A stretch of DNA of 64,000 bases, taken from the NCBI GenBank assembly GCA_964521575.1, contig CAZFSR010000001.1:368470-432469 (forward strand), given 5' to 3'. A program made the translations under genes and the position numbers. The notes under the pieces are model-generated. The model was not told where the DNA came from. It made no database searches and saw only the letters and a list, made by a program, of their open reading frames with translations. The stretch is from an uncultured Synergistaceae bacterium (GTDB taxonomy: Bacteria > Synergistota > Synergistia > Synergistales > 79-D21). This document shows positions 15,898-64,000 of the stretch, one piece after another; position 1 is the first letter of the stretch; every line of letters starts with the position of its first letter.

Positions 15898-16773
15898 ATG
15901 GCGGGATTTCGAGCCAGGGAAGACCGGAAATGGAAGAGCGAAGGCTTCACTCTTGTCGAACTGCTGGTTGCCCTGGTCATCGTCGGGATCTTGGCCGGAG
16001 CCCTTCTCCTGGTTTCTTCGGCCGGGGCGGACAAGGCCCAGGCGGCTCGGGTGGTGAGCGATCTTCGGAACCTGAAGGCCGCGGCGGTGGAGTTCAACGC
16101 GTCCTCCGGGCGCTGGCCCTCGGCGGTGGCCGACCTTTCCGGCTACCTGGACGGCCCCCTGGAGTGCAAGGGGCCTGTCTGCTACGAGGTGGCATCGGGG
16201 GAAACCGGGACTTTCATCGGCTTCACAGCCGATCTCGCCAGGGCAGGAGCGGGTTTGAAGGACCGGTTGAAGGGAATGGCGGGATCCGTTGCCCTCTACT
16301 CCGACACGGCCCTGACGAAGACCTATGCGGGTGAGGCCCTGGCAATCTACCCGGTGTCTTACGCAGGAAGCGGGACGGTGGCCACCGCAGGGGGGACATC
16401 GGGAACAGGCGGAACATCGGAAACAAGCGGAACATCGGGAACAGGCGGAACATCCGAAACAGGCGTACCGAGTGGTGCGGGATCGGGAGAAACCTCTCCG
16501 GATGGCGGTTCCTCTGGTCCCTCTTCGGATCCTGCCTTTTGGGCGACCGAGAAGGACGGGCTGACGATCACACGGACGGCCGAAGGCATATGGGTCCGGC
16601 CCCAGGCCGGGTACCAGATCAAGGGGAGCACGCTCGACGGCAAGAGTTTCACCCTCACGAACGGTTCCGGGTTTGCCCTTTTCTACAAGGGTGCCGACGG
16701 CAACTGGTATTACGAAAAGAACGGCAAGGAAACCCCCGTCGACATCGGAAGCCTGCAGATCATAAAAACCTGA
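15898..16773 (+). CDS. Type IV pilin-like protein (prepilin-type N-terminal cleavage/methylation domain) with Gly/Thr/Ser linker and extra C-terminal domain
   Basis: 291 aa. Class III signal peptide ...KSEG|FTLVELLVALVIVGILAG with G-1, F+1 and E+5. Low-complexity GGTSGTGGTSETSGTSGTGGTSETG linker, then a roughly 90-aa C-terminal domain. Confidence 0.8.
   Translation: MAGFRAREDRKWKSEGFTLVELLVALVIVGILAGALLLVSSAGADKAQAARVVSDLRNLKAAAVEFNASSGRWPSAVADLSGYLDGPLECKGPVCYEVASGETGTFIGFTADLARAGAGLKDRLKGMAGSVALYSDTALTKTYAGEALAIYPVSYAGSGTVATAGGTSGTGGTSETSGTSGTGGTSETGVPSGAGSGETSPDGGSSGPSSDPAFWATEKDGLTITRTAEGIWVRPQAGYQIKGSTLDGKSFTLTNGSGFALFYKGADGNWYYEKNGKETPVDIGSLQIIKT
16396..16467 (+). repeat. 18-nt tandem repeat x4 inside the pilin-like gene
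   Basis: ACATCGGGAACAGGCGGA / ACATCGGAAACAAGCGGA / ACATCGGGAACAGGCGGA / ACATCCGAAACAGGCGTA. In frame, encoding TSGTGG/TSETSG/TSGTGG/TSETGV. Confidence 0.9.
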
Positions 16774-57257: not shown

Positions 57258-57743
57258 TCAGTCCAGCGGCAGTTCCAGGAGAGGGAGGACGTGGCTTTCC
57301 CCTCCCGCGACCGTCGGCTTGCCGCCGATGCGGACCGCACCCATCTTCAGGTAGAATCCCTCCGCCCTGGGTTCAGCCGTGATCGTCATCCTGCGTGCCC
57401 CGGCCTTTCGCGCTTCAAGGACCGCCCGTTCGAACATGAACCGTCCTACACCCTTGCCCTGAGCTTCGGGCAGGACCCAGAAATGGTCGAGATCCAGGGT
57501 GTCGGGCCTTTCGACCGGCATAAGGGAGAAGAAGCCGACCGGGACGAACCGGCCGTCCCTTTCCTCCTCGGCGACGAAATAGGCCTCTTCGCGAAGATGT
57601 TCCTCAAGGACCGTGAGAGGGCCATTCCATTCGTCCAAAGTTTCCTCGGGGTATCCCCAGGTTCGTTTCGAGGCGTAGGCGAGTTCCGTCAGCATCGGCC
57701 CCTCGTTCGGTCTTGCGGGCCTGATTTCCAGGCGGTCACTCAT
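57258..57743 (-). CDS. GNAT-family N-acetyltransferase
   Basis: 161 aa. Acetyl-CoA motif VLPEAQGKGVGRFMFE. The start overlaps the yedF stop (ATGA). Confidence 0.8.
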   Translation of the reverse strand: MSDRLEIRPARPNEGPMLTELAYASKRTWGYPEETLDEWNGPLTVLEEHLREEAYFVAEEERDGRFVPVGFFSLMPVERPDTLDLDHFWVLPEAQGKGVGRFMFERAVLEARKAGARRMTITAEPRAEGFYLKMGAVRIGGKPTVAGGESHVLPLLELPLD

Positions 57744-58336
57744 GCGACCGTCAGCACCTTCGGAGCCGCCAGCAGGGCGTCGGTGATCTCCATCATGTTC
57801 GAGATGCAGCCGGCCCCGACCTTCTCTGTCACGCCGAAATGCTTCGTGCAGGTTCCGCAGACGAGGACCGTTACCCCTTTCTCCTCGATTTTTTTCAGGG
57901 TTTCGCAGGTCGAGGTTCCCTCGAGGGCAAGGAGAACCCCGCCGTTCATGAGGGCGATGACCATGGGAGCCTCCTCCCTGTCGGCCAGGTTGCTCAGGAA
58001 AGCTTTCACCAGGCCCTCCCCGAGAGTTGCGTCCGGGGAGCCCAGGACATTATTCTGCAGGAAGACCGCATAGCCCTTTTCGGGGGCCGGGACCTTATCG
58101 GGCCTTGCCGCCGGAGCGAAGTTGGGAGAACCGGTTCCCCTGATGATGAAGTCCGCGCCGTGCAGCTCTTCCGCGACCGAAAACCCCTGGCTTTCCAGAA
58201 AGCGCTTGACGTTGGAAGCCGAAACGGCGTTGTCAACCAGGATTTCAATCTTCGATGCCCCGTCCTCCAACGCTTTGCGAACCATCACGACAGGCTGGGG
58301 ACAGGCTTTCCCTCTTGCGTCGATCATTTTTTCCAT
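57740..58336 (-). CDS. yedF: YedF-type sulfurtransferase-like selenium metabolism protein (TusA-like + DsrE-like domains)
   Basis: 198 aa. N-terminal TusA motif DARGKACPQPVV and a C-terminal DsrE/F-like half with VCGTCTKHFG. Confidence 0.75.
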   Translation of the reverse strand: MEKMIDARGKACPQPVVMVRKALEDGASKIEILVDNAVSASNVKRFLESQGFSVAEELHGADFIIRGTGSPNFAPAARPDKVPAPEKGYAVFLQNNVLGSPDATLGEGLVKAFLSNLADREEAPMVIALMNGGVLLALEGTSTCETLKKIEEKGVTVLVCGTCTKHFGVTEKVGAGCISNMMEITDALLAAPKVLTVA

Positions 58337-58551: not shown

Positions 58552-59610
58552 ATGGACTGGTTGATCGGTTTCCTGCATCTTTTTGCCATTGGAGTCCCGG
58601 GCTGGCTTCTTCTACGGTTTTTCCATGTCCCTGCCGCTGCAATGATGGGCGCCATGATTTCCGCAGGATTCTTTGCCGTGAAGGGTTGGGGCCTGCCGGA
58701 CGTCCCGGGAGGGGCGAACCTGGTCCTGCAGGTCGTTTTGGGCCTTTTTATCGGCGTGCGGGTGACGCGGGAAGCCCGTGCCGAGTTCGGGAGGAGCGCA
58801 CCGGTGGCCCTTCTGGCGGGGATCTGGTGGCTCCTGCTGCCTCTCGGTCTCGGGATGCTGGTGACGAGGTGGTTCGGCCTGGACCTTCCCACTTCCCTCC
58901 TGGGGACCGTTCCGGGAGGGATCGCAGAGATGAGCCTGCTGGCCCTGACCTTGAACGCGGATGCCGCACTCGTTGCGCTGATGCAGTTTTGCCGCCTGGC
59001 GGCCGTGCTTGTCGGCATGCCTTTCCTGTCCGCCTGGATCAACCGGCGGATGGGGGACGGGGAATCGAGCCGGCCGAAACCCGCTTGCGGGCCGGGGGCC
59101 GGGAAAGGCCCCGCCGCAACACGGCATGGAATGGCTGCGGCCCTTGTGCTGGCTGTCCTGGGAGGGCTTGCGGGTTCCCGGGCGGGGCTTCCTGCGGGAG
59201 CTTTCGTGGGAGCGATGGTCCTGACCGGGATTGCGTCGGTTTCGGGCTTGCGGCTTTGCCCTTTGCCCGTCGCTTTCCGGACCGGTGCCCAGGTGGGGCT
59301 TGGGGGCCTGATCGGGCTGAATGTCACCCCGGAGGTGATCGGGGTCTTTCGGGCCATGCTTCTCCCCACCCTGGCAGTGACGGTCGCCATGGTGGCCTGG
59401 GGAATCCTGCTGGCCTTCATGGTGAGGAAGAGGACCGGCTGGAACCTCATGACCTGCCTCATCGCCACTTGTCCCGGAGGGATCACCCAGCTTGCTTCAA
59501 TTGCGGACGAACTTGGCGCTGATCCCTTGCGGGTGAGCCTTCTCCACCTTGTCCGCCTCTTCACGATCTTCCTTGTCCTCCCTCCCCTCATCAACCGCAT
59601 CCTGGCCTAG
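58552..59610 (+). CDS. AbrB-family duplicated membrane protein (putative transporter/regulator)
   Basis: 352 aa from the ATG 7 nt after GGGGAGG. Two homologous halves carry TVPGGIAEMSLLA and TCPGGITQLASIA. Confidence 0.75.
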   Translation: MDWLIGFLHLFAIGVPGWLLLRFFHVPAAAMMGAMISAGFFAVKGWGLPDVPGGANLVLQVVLGLFIGVRVTREARAEFGRSAPVALLAGIWWLLLPLGLGMLVTRWFGLDLPTSLLGTVPGGIAEMSLLALTLNADAALVALMQFCRLAAVLVGMPFLSAWINRRMGDGESSRPKPACGPGAGKGPAATRHGMAAALVLAVLGGLAGSRAGLPAGAFVGAMVLTGIASVSGLRLCPLPVAFRTGAQVGLGGLIGLNVTPEVIGVFRAMLLPTLAVTVAMVAWGILLAFMVRKRTGWNLMTCLIATCPGGITQLASIADELGADPLRVSLLHLVRLFTIFLVLPPLINRILA

Positions 59611-59635
59611 GTTCAAAAGCGGGGCCGGGTTGCGA

Positions 59636-59739
59636 TAAAATGAACCCGGCTGTTCTCACAAGGCACGGAGAAGGAGGAGCGTTCCCGGGGCCGCTGGATG
59701 GTGCGCGGGCCTGACCCGGGGGGAAACCCATCCTGGCCG
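59636..59739 (+). promoter_or_regulatory. Conserved promoter-leader module, copy A (upstream of the M20 gene)
   Basis: TAAAAT (59636-59641), 36 nt, then AGCGTTCCCGGGGCCGC-N8-GCGCGGGCCTGACC-C-GGGGGGAA-N3-CATCCTGGCCG (59678-59739). Matches copy B block for block. Confidence 0.6.
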
Positions 59740-59877
59740 GTTCATTTCGTGAACCGGCGCGACCGAGGTGAGGATCATGCGCAAGCTGGACGCGCCCATC
59801 CCCCCGGAAGGGGATTCCGGCTCCTGTATCTCACGGTTTTTGAGCCCCTGCCCGATTCCGGAAAGGGGGCACGCCCG

Positions 59878-61530
59878 ATGACCTGGCAACTCGGGAACGC
59901 CCCGGAGGAACTCTATCGGCTGCTCCTCGATCTTGTGAGGGTTCCCAGCGTGTCCCTGACGCTGGGTGAAGTTGAAATCGCCGAGCGAATCGAGGCGTCC
60001 CTGGGGGCTCTCCCCTATTTCCGTTCCAACCCGGACGACCTCCGTTTCATTCCCATTCCTGACGACCCCATGGGCCGTAAAAGCGTGATGGCCCTTGTCC
60101 GGGCAAAACCGGCGACGCGAAGGACGATCATCGTGATCGGCCATGCGGATGTCGTCGGGCCCGAACCCTACGGGAACCTCGCGGAGCTGGCATTCGACCC
60201 GGTTGCCCTGACGGCCCGGATGAAGGAAGAAGACCTGCCCCCGGAAGTCCGGGCAGACCTTGAAAGCGGGGATTTCCTTTTCGGCCGGGGTGTCGGTGAC
60301 ATGAAGGCCGGGGTGGCTCTCGGGATGGGCCTTGTGGCGGAGCGCTCCGCCGACACCTCCTCGATGGGCGCGAACCTGCTTTTTCTTGCCCTCGTGGACG
60401 AGGAGATCAGCTCGGGCGGCATGCGGGCGGCCGTTCCCGTGCTGGCCGGCCTGCAGGAAGAACTCGACTTCGTCGCCTGCATGAACACGGAGCCGTCGGA
60501 CCCGGGTTTTTCCCAGGGGCGGAACCATTGCTTCTCGCTGGGTTCCGCGGGCAAGCACAACCTGTTTTTCCTCTTCGCGGGCCGGGCCTCCCACAGCACC
60601 GCCTATTTCGAGGGTTTCAACGCGATCCTGCCGGCTGCGCACCTTGCGGTCCTGCTGGAAGGGAACGATTCCCTGACCGACCGATCCCCCAGGGACACCT
60701 TTTCGCCCATGGGGTGCCTCAAGCTGAAAGATCTCAGGACCACCTATTCGGGAACCCTTCCGGAAACGGCCGCTGTCTATGTCAACCTGAACCCGGTCCA
60801 CAGGATGCCCGGGGAGATCCTCTCGTCCCTGGAGAGGTTTTCCAGGGAGGCACTGGACCGCTCCATCCGCCAGGTCAGGGATGCCTACCTCCGCTACGGG
60901 GAAAACATCGGTCAGTGGCCGCCTCGCGGTGAATGGCATGGGAAAGTCCTGCCCTTCTCGGAGCTGGCCGCAGCTGCGGAAAAGCAAGTGGGCCCAGGTT
61001 TCGACGGGATCATGCGAAAGTTTGTCGCGGAACTGCCGACCGGGATGGAGGAGCAGGACCGCTGCATTGCCGTGGCGGAGGAAACCCTGCGCAGGTCTGG
61101 GATGGAAGGGCCCCTTGTCGTTTACGGTTTTCTCCCGCCCTATTACCCTCAAAGGATCACCACAGGCAGGACCCGGACCGAAAAGAACCTGCTCGGTGCC
61201 GTCGACTGGGCCATCCGGGAAGGGCGGGACCGGTACGGGGTCAAGATCGACGTGAACGACTACTTCGGCGGGGTCTCCGACCTGAGTTTTTTCGGATTCC
61301 AGGGAACGGCTTCCGACATGGAAGCGCTTTCCGGCAACCTCCCCGGGTGGGGAACGGTTTTCCCTTTCCCGGACAAGGACTTGCCCAGGCTGGACGTCCC
61401 GGTGGCGAATATCGCCCCGGCAGGGAAAGACAGCCACAAGAAGACGGAAAGACTGGAAATCTCCTATTCGCTAGAGGTGGTGCCCCGCCTTTTGGCCGGG
61501 GTTTTCGACAGGCTGGCGGCCGGAAATTAG
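59878..61530 (+). CDS. M20-family metallohydrolase (RocB-like, ~550 aa)
   Basis: 550 aa from the ATG after GAAAGGGGG. M20 motifs IVIGHADVV and GRGVGDMKAG. The length and N-terminus recall RocB-type proteins (from memory). The track start 59698 would translate the conserved leader. Confidence 0.75.
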   Translation: MTWQLGNAPEELYRLLLDLVRVPSVSLTLGEVEIAERIEASLGALPYFRSNPDDLRFIPIPDDPMGRKSVMALVRAKPATRRTIIVIGHADVVGPEPYGNLAELAFDPVALTARMKEEDLPPEVRADLESGDFLFGRGVGDMKAGVALGMGLVAERSADTSSMGANLLFLALVDEEISSGGMRAAVPVLAGLQEELDFVACMNTEPSDPGFSQGRNHCFSLGSAGKHNLFFLFAGRASHSTAYFEGFNAILPAAHLAVLLEGNDSLTDRSPRDTFSPMGCLKLKDLRTTYSGTLPETAAVYVNLNPVHRMPGEILSSLERFSREALDRSIRQVRDAYLRYGENIGQWPPRGEWHGKVLPFSELAAAAEKQVGPGFDGIMRKFVAELPTGMEEQDRCIAVAEETLRRSGMEGPLVVYGFLPPYYPQRITTGRTRTEKNLLGAVDWAIREGRDRYGVKIDVNDYFGGVSDLSFFGFQGTASDMEALSGNLPGWGTVFPFPDKDLPRLDVPVANIAPAGKDSHKKTERLEISYSLEVVPRLLAGVFDRLAAGN

Positions 61531-61547
61531 CCAGGCAGGAACAAGAA

Positions 61548-61573
61548 GGGGGGCGGACCACGGTCCGCCCCCC
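61548..61573. other. GC hairpin between the convergent M20 and kamA genes
   Basis: GGGGGGCGGACC / GGTCCGCCCCCC arms. No clear U-tract on either strand. Confidence 0.4.
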
Positions 61574-61588
61574 TTCATCGTGAAAAAA

Positions 61589-62863
61589 TCAGTTTTTCCC
61601 TTCGGCCCGCCTTTTCCTGGCGGTCGTCTCAGGCTGGATGGAAACCCGCTCCCCCTCGAAGAGGGGGATCATTCCTTCCCGGGAAAAGGCCTTCTGCCTT
61701 TCGCAAATCCTGCCGCAGTGCTCGGGGCAGCGACTGGTCTTGTCCTCGGGTTCCGTGTAGGTCGTGAAGGTTCCCTCGTAGTTACGCAGGATGACCTTTC
61801 GGTCCGACATGGAAACGAGGTAGTTGGGCAGGATCGGGATCTTGCCTCCACCTCCCGGGCTGTCGATGATGTAATAAGGGACCGCCAGGCCGGACGTGTG
61901 TCCCCGCAGGTATTCCATGATCTGGATCCCCTTGCCCACGGCGGTCCGGAAGTGCTCGATGCCCGGCGAAAGGTCGCACTGGTAGATGTAGTAGGGGCGC
62001 ACCCGGATCGTCAACAGTTTCTGGTTCAGCTCCCGGAAGATGTACGGGCAGTCGTTCACTCCTTTCAGGAGGACCGACTGGTTTCCCAGGGGAACGCCGG
62101 CCCGCGCCAGCCGGTCGCAGGCGGCTTTCGACTCCGGGGTGATTTCGTTCGGGTGGTTGAAGTGGGTGTTGATCCAGACGGGCGGGTATTTTTCCAGGAT
62201 GCGGCAGAGGCTGTCCGTGATGCGCTGGGGCATGACGACCGGCGTTCGGGTGCCGAAGCGGACGATCTCCAGGTGAGGGATGCTCCAGGCCTCTTCCAGG
62301 AGCCACTCGATCGTTTCGTCATCGACCGTGAAGGGGTCCCCTCCCGTGAAAAGGAGATCCCGGAAGCCAGGGTTGTTTCGGATGTACTCGAAACAGGCCT
62401 CCATCTGGGTCCGGGAGAAGGGGCGGTCGGTTTCCCCGGCCATCCTCCTTCTCGTGCAGTGGCGGCAGTACATGGAACACTGGTCGGTCACCAGGATAAT
62501 GCCCCGGTCCGGGTAAAGCTGGGTCAGCCCGGGAACGGGCGAGTGATGAACCTCAGCCTGCTGGTCAATCAGGTCGTAGGCCTTGATGTCGGTTTCGGCG
62601 ATCGTCGGGACCGCCTGCCTGCGGATCGGGTCGTCAGGGTTTTCCGGGTCGATGAGGGATGCGTAGTAGGGGGTGACCGCCATCCTCAGGCGGTTCAGGC
62701 TCCTGTCGAGGACCTCGGTTTCCGCGGGAGCCAGGGGGAGAACCCTTTCGAGGGCCTCGCGCGTCGTGAGCCGGTTCGCGATCTGCCAGCGCCAGTCATT
62801 CCATTGCTCGTCGGGAACGTCTTTCCATGGGGTTTCCATTCGCGCGTCACGCATGGTGTTCAC
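61589..62863 (-). CDS. kamA: Lysine 2,3-aminomutase family radical SAM enzyme
   Basis: 424 aa. CSMYCRHCTRR (CxxxCxxC), GGDP, YYIYQCDLSPGIEHFR and IIDSPGGGGK. Both Asp positions that I recall as lysine-specific are retained. Confidence 0.85.
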   Translation of the reverse strand: MNTMRDARMETPWKDVPDEQWNDWRWQIANRLTTREALERVLPLAPAETEVLDRSLNRLRMAVTPYYASLIDPENPDDPIRRQAVPTIAETDIKAYDLIDQQAEVHHSPVPGLTQLYPDRGIILVTDQCSMYCRHCTRRRMAGETDRPFSRTQMEACFEYIRNNPGFRDLLFTGGDPFTVDDETIEWLLEEAWSIPHLEIVRFGTRTPVVMPQRITDSLCRILEKYPPVWINTHFNHPNEITPESKAACDRLARAGVPLGNQSVLLKGVNDCPYIFRELNQKLLTIRVRPYYIYQCDLSPGIEHFRTAVGKGIQIMEYLRGHTSGLAVPYYIIDSPGGGGKIPILPNYLVSMSDRKVILRNYEGTFTTYTEPEDKTSRCPEHCGRICERQKAFSREGMIPLFEGERVSIQPETTARKRRAEGKN

Positions 62864-62939
62864 CTCGATGCGGACCTCCGGGCATACGGGAACCTCGCTG
62901 CAGCACCCCGCGGGTCCTTCTTGCCCGGATCGGCCAGGA

Positions 62940-63043
62940 TGAAATTCCCCCCAGGTCAGGCCCGCGCGTGCCGCGCGCGGCCCCGGGAACGCTCCCCCTT
63001 TCCCTTGCCTGCATAAAGAGACGGTTTTATTTTAGTGCATTGC
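62940..63043 (-). promoter_or_regulatory. Conserved promoter-leader module, copy B (upstream of kamA)
   Basis: On the minus strand: TAAAAT (63043-63038), 35 nt, then AGCGTTCCCGGGGCCGC-N9-GCGCGGGCCTGACC-T-GGGGGGAA-N3-CATCCTGGCCG (63002-62940). Confidence 0.6.
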
Positions 63044-63150
63044 GGGGCCTCGTCCGACCACTGTTTCGGCTCTTCCTTCATCCTGCGGAGGGGAGGTATG
63101 ATGGAATCAGCCGCAAGGAAAGGGCAACCTCATTTCACGGGGTAAAAACC

Positions 63151-64000
63151 ATGTCCTCGATGAAGATCCGGCACTGGGCCGAAAACCGTCCCTTCCTTTT
63201 CGCATCCGGGCTCGTGGGAACAGCCACCGTGCTTTTCCTTCCGGGAAGGGACCTGCTCGGGAAGGGGCACTGGGCCCTGCTCTACCTGCTCGTGATCTCG
63301 GTCGTCGCCTCGGTGGCCGGTTCCAGGCCCGCCCTGGTGGCGGCGCTGGTTTCGTTTTTGACCTGGAACGTCTTCTTCCTGCCGCCGTACAACACCTTCC
63401 GGGTGGACGACCCGAAAGACTGGATTTCCCTTGGAGTCTTCCTGGTCGTGGGAGTCCTGATCGGCCTGACCTCGGGTCGCCTGAGGGAAAGGGAAGCCCT
63501 GGCCGTTTCACAGGAAAGGGAAATGGCCCTCCTCAACCGCCTGACAGGACGCCTGCTGGCGATCCAGGGTCCCCTCGAGATGGCGGAAGTGCTCTGCGCC
63601 GAGATCGAGGGGGTCTTCTCACCGCGCTTCATCCGGTTCCACCTAGTCGAAAGCGGTGGGAGGAGAACGCTCCTGTTCGGCATGAAAGCCGAGCTCGAAA
63701 TGGATCCACTGGAAGAGGACTTTCTGGAATGGGTGGCCAGGAACGTCAAGGGAGTGGCTTCCCCGGCAGAGGATCCGTCGGGTGCAAACCGGCCGGGAGG
63801 AAGCGGGAGCCCTGTCCCCCACTCCACGCTTTTCCCAGCCGTTTCAAGAGGGGATGTCTTTCTCCCCGTTCTTTCCTCGTCGGGGCTCGAAGGCATCCTG
63901 CACGTAGGCGAGCGGCGCAACCAGGTGCCTTTCAGCTGGAGTGAAATCCAGCTTTTGTCGGCGGCTGCCCACATGGCGGGACTTTTTCTCGAAAGGAACC
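63151..64000 (+). CDS. Sensor histidine kinase N-terminal part (DUF4118 membrane domain + GAF-like region), truncated by window end
   Basis: My own translation from ATG 63151 stays open to the window end. MSSMKIRHWAENRPFLF...LTWNVFFLPPYNTFRVDDPKDWISLGVFLVVGVLIGLTSGRLRERE is the KdpD-type DUF4118 signature. Absent from the ORF track because no stop is reached. Confidence 0.75.
   Translation, partial: MSSMKIRHWAENRPFLFASGLVGTATVLFLPGRDLLGKGHWALLYLLVISVVASVAGSRPALVAALVSFLTWNVFFLPPYNTFRVDDPKDWISLGVFLVVGVLIGLTSGRLREREALAVSQEREMALLNRLTGRLLAIQGPLEMAEVLCAEIEGVFSPRFIRFHLVESGGRRTLLFGMKAELEMDPLEEDFLEWVARNVKGVASPAEDPSGANRPGGSGSPVPHSTLFPAVSRGDVFLPVLSSSGLEGILHVGERRNQVPFSWSEIQLLSAAAHMAGLFLERN

Follow-up and report, generated by a model that had tools for sequence, protein, structure and literature searches.

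Here we describe a duplicated leader element in an uncultured Synergistaceae bacterium, found in a stretch of 64,000 nucleotides (nt) of its genome (contig CAZFSR010000001.1, positions 368,470 to 432,469; hereafter the window, numbered from its first letter). One copy of the element precedes kamA, which encodes a lysine 2,3-aminomutase, and the other precedes a convergent gene for an M20-family metallohydrolase. The element is previously undescribed and restricted to a single clade, where it marks a regulon of two genes. We propose that it is probably the core of a new, clade-restricted and structured cis-regulatory 5' leader RNA, in which an effector would drive a switch between alternative folds and expression would be controlled after transcription has been initiated.

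Two copies of a leader module precede kamA and the M20 gene

The genes and modules on which the analysis centres, together with the promoter-like sites in front of the modules, are as follows.

59612..59641, plus strand: promoter-like site of copy A (TTCAAA, an 18-nt spacer and TAAAAT at 59636-59641, with TGCGA before the box); the only sigma-70-like match in 59500-63200
59659..59740, plus strand: copy A of the conserved leader module, 82 nt, before the M20 gene; covariance-model score 97 bits; a row of the 21-copy alignment A4
59878..61530, plus strand: M20/M25/M40 metallohydrolase gene, RocB-like, 550 amino acids (aa); Pfam PF01546, with weak ArgE/DapE-family matches
61589..62854, minus strand: lysine 2,3-aminomutase gene (AblA/KamA type), 421 aa; NCBIfam TIGR03820 at 545 bits against a cut-off of 525, Pfam LAM_C and Radical_SAM
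62930..63012, minus strand: copy B of the conserved leader module, 83 nt, before kamA; covariance-model score 89 bits; a row of alignment A4
63029..63039, minus strand: -10-like box of copy B (TGCACTAAAAT; TAAAAT at 63034-63029)

A first-pass annotation of the window had pointed out the duplication, and most of what it read from the sequence was borne out. Four blocks are identical between the copies, namely AGCGTTCCCGGGGCCGC (17/17), GCGCGGGCCTGACC (14/14), GGGGGGAA (8/8) and CATCCTGGCCG (11/11); the spacers between them measure 8 versus 9, 1 versus 1 and 3 versus 3 nt, and TAAAAT stands before each copy. Measured from this box, copy A lies where it had been placed, at 59636-59739 on the plus strand. 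The position given for copy B (63043-62940) was off by 9 nt: the copy runs from 63034 to 62931, its TAAAAT occupying 63034-63029 and its last block reaching 62931. Comparison with relatives places the start of kamA at the ATG at 62854, which follows a conserved GAGGTGA, and not at the GTG at 62863. The proposed distance of 77 nt from the module to the kamA start holds once both coordinates are corrected, although neither the copy B position nor the start codon originally used to obtain it does.

The resemblance between the copies exceeds chance. The two halves of the module are the longest inverted repeats of the window (I1, 37 nt at 89%; I2, 34 nt at 88%), and the match that comes next after the two copies in a covariance search of the window scores 14.8 bits. 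Pairwise alignment limits the similarity to about 110 columns.

A TAnAAT box is kept at the same position in all M20 and kamA copies from all lineages, and the two module copies account for the only two sites in the window that fit TGSNNTANAAT. The promoter-like site of copy A agrees with the sigma-70-type consensus at 9 of 12 positions, combining a TAnAAT -10 box with a -35 hexamer at a distance within the accepted 16-18 nt; the -35 region is not conserved among the kamA copies. The module begins about 17-20 nt downstream of the conserved -10-like box, which, judged from this predicted promoter, is the position of a leader and not that typical of an operator. A candidate sigma-54 promoter inside the 3' block was rejected on inspection, its spacing being wrong.

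The module is restricted to two genes in one Synergistales clade

For comparison with the window, contigs of relatives were fetched (the L-numbered loci, L001 etc.). Searches with a covariance model and pattern scans both established that the module is conserved in related genomes. About 12 related Synergistales lineages have it at both positions, as does each fetched relative whose contig covers both, with L019 as the sole exception. An alignment of 21 distinct copies (A4) gave the covariance model (R1), which was run on 215 kb, made up of the window and 16 loci. All known copies scored 89-103 bits, and there was no sign of a third copy, nothing else in these 215 kb exceeding 15 bits.

A degenerate pattern scanned against 185,579 species-representative genomes matched in 3 Synergistales genomes. 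A looser scan of metagenome contigs recovered more copies, every one of them before kamA or the M20 gene; the other ~30 pattern matches there were due to chance and fell mostly within coding sequence. No module was found in a pattern scan of viral contigs. The idea that further copies might serve other genes was not upheld, for neither the pattern scans nor the 215-kb covariance search placed one before any other gene. The outgroup kamA loci L023 and L024 (68-71% identity) carry neither the module nor an Rfam element, and the same is true of the paralogous M20 loci L013, L016 and L018 (41-46% identity). The module is restricted to these two genes in one Synergistales clade.

The exception, L019, is also a member of the Synergistaceae. 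Its kamA gene has the module; in front of its M20 gene, the TGCGCTAGAAT promoter and the first transcribed bases are the same as elsewhere, and a short leader follows.

L019 4204-4310, minus strand: M20 leader of 85 nt, without the module and without the upstream open reading frame (ORF) described below

The M20 protein of L019 is the most divergent of the set, and its KamA protein is nested among the others. Loss of the module is somewhat more likely here than a state that predates the duplication. Homology between the 3' part of this leader and the other leaders was considered and rejected as not significant.

The core of the module is under selection and the duplication is old

The 21 distinct copies represent about 12 lineages, and in two core blocks they agree without exception at 19/22 and 18/21 columns (37/43 together). 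Loop identity in the same copies is 32% for one predicted hairpin (P2, see below) and 46% for another (P3). At the four-fold degenerate sites of kamA, compared in 8 of the same lineages, 16% are invariant and pairwise identity is 60%. Set against these four-fold sites and the P2 loop, the invariance of the core blocks clearly indicates that the module is under strong purifying selection. Since the loops vary in both length and sequence, the module cannot be coding. The first-pass description of a duplicated module in sense orientation to both genes was correct, and the module is non-coding and under selection. Constraint at the RNA level does not extend into the kamA ORF, where synonymous identity over codons 1-20 (0.70) is the same as in the rest of the gene.

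The two paralogous copies differ at diagnostic positions, for example AAUUUCA versus AAACCYA, and these differences are common to the lineages. It follows that the duplication predates the radiation of the lineages, and that the likeness of the copies is not kept by gene conversion.

The duplicated unit includes a translation start

The duplicated unit had been put at about 100 nt. It is in fact longer, and adds to the module a ribosome-binding site, an ATG and about 12 codons of kamA. Beyond the module, each leader finishes with GAGGTGA followed by ATG.

59765..59881, plus strand: strong, apparently kamA-derived ribosome-binding site GAGGTGA (59765-59771) and 34-codon upstream ORF (ATG 59777, TGA 59879-59881)
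62860..62866, minus strand: kamA ribosome-binding site GAGGTGA, invariant in 11 kamA leaders

When the segment from the ribosome-binding site to about codon 12 was aligned locally with the 5' end of kamA, the scores were 26-35 in L003, L011, L031 and L048, against 15 +/- 2 for shuffles; the window's own pair scored 21, within the shuffle range. Because the alignment lies far above shuffles in several lineages, the upstream ORF is apparently a decayed copy of the kamA start. It is present in 9/9 compared lineages, and in most of them its stop codon overlaps or adjoins the M20 ATG, the overlap in the window taking the form ATGA. The M20 start itself, at 59878, is backed by an N-terminus (MTW...) that is kept in 9 lineages. 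Retention of the co-duplicated ribosome-binding site, ATG and codons as a coupled upstream ORF makes sense if control is exerted on the transcript or at the start of translation.

Predicted structure of the leader RNA

Comparison of the copies yielded a central hairpin within the module, and two further elements were predicted outside it or at its edge.

59686..59713, plus strand: predicted central hairpin P2 of copy A (CGGG.CCGC / GCGG.CCUG, with a variable loop); all cells paired in 21/21 copies
62957..62985, minus strand: predicted central hairpin P2 of copy B
62878..62928, minus strand: predicted helix P4 of the kamA leader (CCGGGCA 62928-62922 / TGCCCGG 62884-62878), enclosing a variable hairpin; from RNAalifold on 11 kamA leaders
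59737..59757, plus strand: predicted lineage-specific hairpin CCGGTTCA/TGAACCGG after module A, its 5' arm overlapping the 3' end of the module; from the sequence and its predicted minimum-free-energy fold

The GGCCGC/GCGGGCC hairpin of the first-pass annotation, which corresponds to P2, proved to be real: one compensatory change, from C-G to U-A, was found in the L009/L027 lineage, and the loop is free in both sequence and length. The UUCCC/GGGAA pairing that had been suggested across this hairpin is invariant in all copies, and belongs to a long-hairpin fold that is one of two mutually exclusive folds. The other is a three-hairpin model, in which 418/420 cells (99.5%) are paired over 21 sequences. 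Seven of its pairs vary one-sidedly, always from G-C to G-U or from A-U to G-U, and one varies by compensation (the C-G to U-A change). The same three hairpins were obtained independently when RNAalifold was applied to the M20 leaders. The long imperfect hairpin, which contains UUCCC/GGGAA, has 94% of its cells paired and four pairs that change on both sides; the long hairpin that RNAalifold returns for the kamA leaders is broken in the M20 copies.

Nearly all substitutions keep pairing, often as G-U. Because a G-U pair corresponds to a C-A mismatch on the other strand, the sense strand would be the structured one, and the pattern points to an RNA read in the sense of both genes. Outside the module, helix P4 has one pair changed on both sides (G-C to U-A) in 2/11 kamA leaders, and L002 has a hairpin after module A that is equivalent to that of the window and different in sequence.

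Described RNA families and expression signals

The earlier statement that the module fits no known riboswitch class and is not an L-box stood up to a search of Rfam 15, in which no family matched, the lysine riboswitch included. At the gathering threshold there was no match in the whole window or in five related loci. At E<=10, the region 59400-63300 and each isolated leader returned noise only, namely a Magnesium-II match of 17.9 bits within the upstream ORF and an STnc320 match at the terminator-like hairpin between the two genes. The covariance model of the lysine riboswitch (RF00168) was unmatched in the window at the gathering threshold and in the region and isolated leaders at E<=10, and that of the cyclic di-AMP (c-di-AMP) riboswitch ydaO-yuaA (RF00379), which has a pseudo-two-fold aptamer, was unmatched in the window, the isolated leaders and the related loci. 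For the Na+-I riboswitch (DUF1646 motif) there was likewise no Rfam match on the window or leaders. A search of the literature found no described motif for kamA or for Synergistetes.

Neither leader contains an intrinsic terminator. In five M20 lineages CCUUGCC stands immediately before the ribosome-binding site and matches, with full complementarity, the purine block GGCAAGG in the 5' part of the module (z -3 to -5.5).

L006 3860-3880: CCUUGCC upstream of the ribosome-binding site of the upstream ORF; equivalents in L003, L009, L011 and L048

In these five lineages the two segments could possibly form a long-range helix or provide a third pairing partner. The window's own M20 leader shows no CCUUGCC/GGCAAGG complementarity.

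Neighbouring genes

An AbrB-type gene, the M20 gene and the convergent kamA follow one another in every fetched contig; in the window the gene upstream of M20 encodes an AbrB-duplication membrane protein. Orthologues of the M20 protein (80-99% identity), from Synergistales metagenome-assembled genomes, are named RocB by the Joint Genome Institute (JGI).

61545..61576, no strand assigned: GC-rich, terminator-like 14-bp hairpin between the convergent M20 and kamA stop codons; weak STnc320-type Rfam match

On the other side of the kamA promoter, 63151-64000 of the window (plus strand) encodes a DUF4118 histidine kinase (KdpD-like), divergent from kamA. The neighbour in this position varies by lineage, and may be the KdpD-like DUF4118 kinase with an OmpR-type regulator, the potassium uptake genes for TrkH/TrkA, or serine acetyltransferase with cysteine synthase.

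L006 7269-9344 and L021 4886-6859: variable neighbour of the kamA promoter in relatives

The kinase with its OmpR-type regulator and TrkH/TrkA hint at an osmotic or potassium context. In L003 (5662-7443, minus strand), and also in L008 and L011, a gene of 580-593 aa with a histone-deacetylase-type amidohydrolase domain lies directly downstream of kamA; it presumably shares the kamA leader in these relatives. The window contains no such gene.

Upstream of the AbrB-like gene, a YedF-like selenium-metabolism sulfurtransferase and a small GNAT acetyltransferase (window 57258-58336, minus strand) are conserved neighbours in all relatives. AblB was considered as a neighbour of kamA and rejected, as the nearby GNAT protein is not AblB-like. 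Further away, at 16388-16465, an 18-nt repeat occurs in 4.3 tandem copies (CAGGCGGAACATCGGAAA) within long ORFs of both strands.

Discussion

The reading that we favour, with moderate confidence, would have the following history. The ancestral kamA promoter and leader, with the ribosome-binding site and the first ~12 codons, would have been copied to a position before the neighbouring M20 gene, where what is left of kamA would persist as a short upstream ORF, its stop codon overlapping the start of M20. The leader RNA would be transcribed from the TAnAAT promoter about 20-25 nt upstream of the module. It would contain a solid P2, with flanks that alternate between three short hairpins and one long imperfect hairpin, the latter with UUCCC/GGGAA. 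The balance between these folds would be shifted by an effector, which might be a small molecule (in which case the leader would be a riboswitch) or an RNA-binding protein, and translation initiation or the fate of the mRNA would be altered in this way. We infer the switch, its effector and the level at which control is exerted, and for control after transcription initiation it is mainly the co-duplication of the translation start that argues. As kamA and the M20 gene carry the same leader, they would be expected to answer to the same signal, for which the gene context suggests lysine, beta-lysine, acyl-beta-lysine or an osmotic cue. A more specific version, which we hold only tentatively, is that the module is the aptamer of an undescribed class of Synergistales riboswitch that senses beta-lysine, acyl-beta-lysine, lysine or an osmotic or ionic signal, toggles between the three-hairpin and long-hairpin folds, and moved together with the kamA translation start.

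Several observations weigh against a fold-switching leader RNA. The covariation score of the long hairpin (0.154) is greater than in all 500 shuffles, but minimum-free-energy folds had been inspected before the model was drawn, and some of its covariation reflects the difference between the two paralogues. More generally, most stem positions never vary, covariation amounts to few events, several of them between paralogues, and single-sequence folding of this GC-rich sequence is no more stable than that of shuffles (z -1.0 to +1.8). The blocks are invariant in sequence, beyond what pairing alone would require, which also fits recognition of the DNA by a protein. Modelling of the leaders defined no expression platform: the 5' segment, taken as an anti-ribosome-binding site, had duplex energies with the ribosome-binding site no better than shuffles, and when the three-hairpin or long-hairpin fold was forced, the ribosome-binding site and ATG showed no consistent shift in predicted accessibility. 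The transcription start at the TAnAAT box is a predicted one. Diversity is low, all copies coming from one clade with M20 proteins that are 78-90% identical. Finally, the M20 gene of L019 has the promoter without the module, and the module is thus dispensable for M20 expression.

Protein recognition of the DNA could take the form of an operator, in which a transcription factor bound past the promoter to the invariant blocks (TTCCCGGGGCC, GGCCTGACCYGGGGGGAA) would block or modulate RNA polymerase at the two genes; a candidate for this factor would be the OmpR-type response regulator whose gene lies beside kamA in several lineages. This fits blocks that are kept in sequence beyond pairing and that include a palindrome, CCCGGG, and a near-repeat, CCYGGGG, at a distance that varies by only about 2 nt (spans of 40-42 nt). 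A dimeric factor would have inverted half-sites at fixed spacing; the spacing of the blocks ranges over 17-19 nt, and their substitutions obey RNA wobble rules. A DUF4118 histidine kinase and an OmpR-type regulator do flank kamA in the window, L002, L009 and L011; however, L001, L003 and L006 have the module and no two-component system nearby. It would also be atypical of an operator to have some 55 invariant positions in a stretch of 80 nt, lying at roughly +20 to +100 relative to the -10 box, and an operator would have no need of the co-duplicated ribosome-binding site, ATG and first codons. Substitutions in the paired arms all keep G-U or G-C on the sense strand, with one compensatory change, and a protein-DNA site requires neither. 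We therefore regard an operator as unlikely; of RNA and operator, both of which the first-pass annotation had considered, RNA is favoured.

An RNA element could also act constitutively, by stabilising the mRNA, directing its processing, or serving as a ribosome standby site or translation enhancer, and could have been copied because it gave suitable expression. The purine-rich AAGGAGGAG resembles a ribosome-binding site, and the module contains a strong match of this kind, AAGGAGG, with no start codon after it. Neither a terminator nor a helix that sequesters the ribosome-binding site was found in the leaders, and the M20 gene of L019 does without the module. A stabilising hairpin, however, needs neither ~55 invariant nucleotides nor two alternative conserved folds, and the conserved unpaired junctions GACCYGGG and GAGCG suggest specific recognition; a constitutive role appears improbable to us. 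A functionless origin by recent neutral duplication or gene conversion, in which the similarity would reflect ancestry only, would fit the presence of just two adjacent copies per genome. It is effectively refuted by the persistence of both copies in ~12 lineages whose synonymous sites are largely randomised, by the shared paralogue-specific differences, which mark the duplication as old and not homogenised by conversion, and by loops and flanks that have diverged freely while the blocks have not.

If the module is a sensor, RNA-based control of beta-lysine metabolism would gain a new class of ligand or effector, and the module would give a clue to what the RocB-like M20 hydrolase does, since genes under one leader usually act on the same metabolite. 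The scope of these conclusions is that of uncultured genomes from one narrow clade, and of two genes.

Relation to known regulatory systems

As in riboswitches generally, the module is a conserved non-coding element of a 5' leader, in sense orientation to its gene. The lysine riboswitch (L-box, RF00168) is likewise a cis-regulatory RNA tied to lysine metabolism, and such riboswitches have been reported upstream of kamA operons in certain Firmicutes and Fusobacteria. The L-box differs in being a ~180-nt five-helix junction, whereas the module has 82 nt and is not matched by the L-box covariance model.

Elsewhere, ablA/kamA genes are controlled by c-di-AMP riboswitches or by tandem Na+ plus c-di-AMP riboswitches (PMC5737381, PMC9337991). 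The c-di-AMP (ydaO-yuaA) leaders and the tandem Na+-I (DUF1646 motif) plus c-di-AMP leaders, as in Dehalobacter sp. CF, are similar to the present case in placing a structured 5' leader before an AblA-type gene (PMC9337991, PMC5737381), and the TrkH/TrkA and KdpD-like kinase genes of the relatives hint that osmotic or potassium biology may be involved here as well. In contrast to these leaders, the module matches no family, is not followed by a terminator and occurs in one Synergistales clade only.

The module also resembles the orphan motifs of a survey of 224 motifs (PMC5737381), in that it is defined by conservation before a narrow set of genes and has few covarying pairs. It differs from them in being duplicated within one locus together with the translation start of its gene, in being known so far from uncultured genomes only, and in having no entry in Rfam 15. 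Lastly, the 34-codon ORF is like other translationally coupled upstream ORFs in that its stop overlaps the M20 ATG as ATGA. Unlike them, it appears to consist of the decayed first codons of a neighbouring gene, carried along with the leader, rather than of a dedicated leader peptide. The locus illustrates, whichever effector is involved, how a leader can be transferred to a new gene along with a ribosome-binding site and first codons, the remnant of which becomes a coupled upstream ORF.

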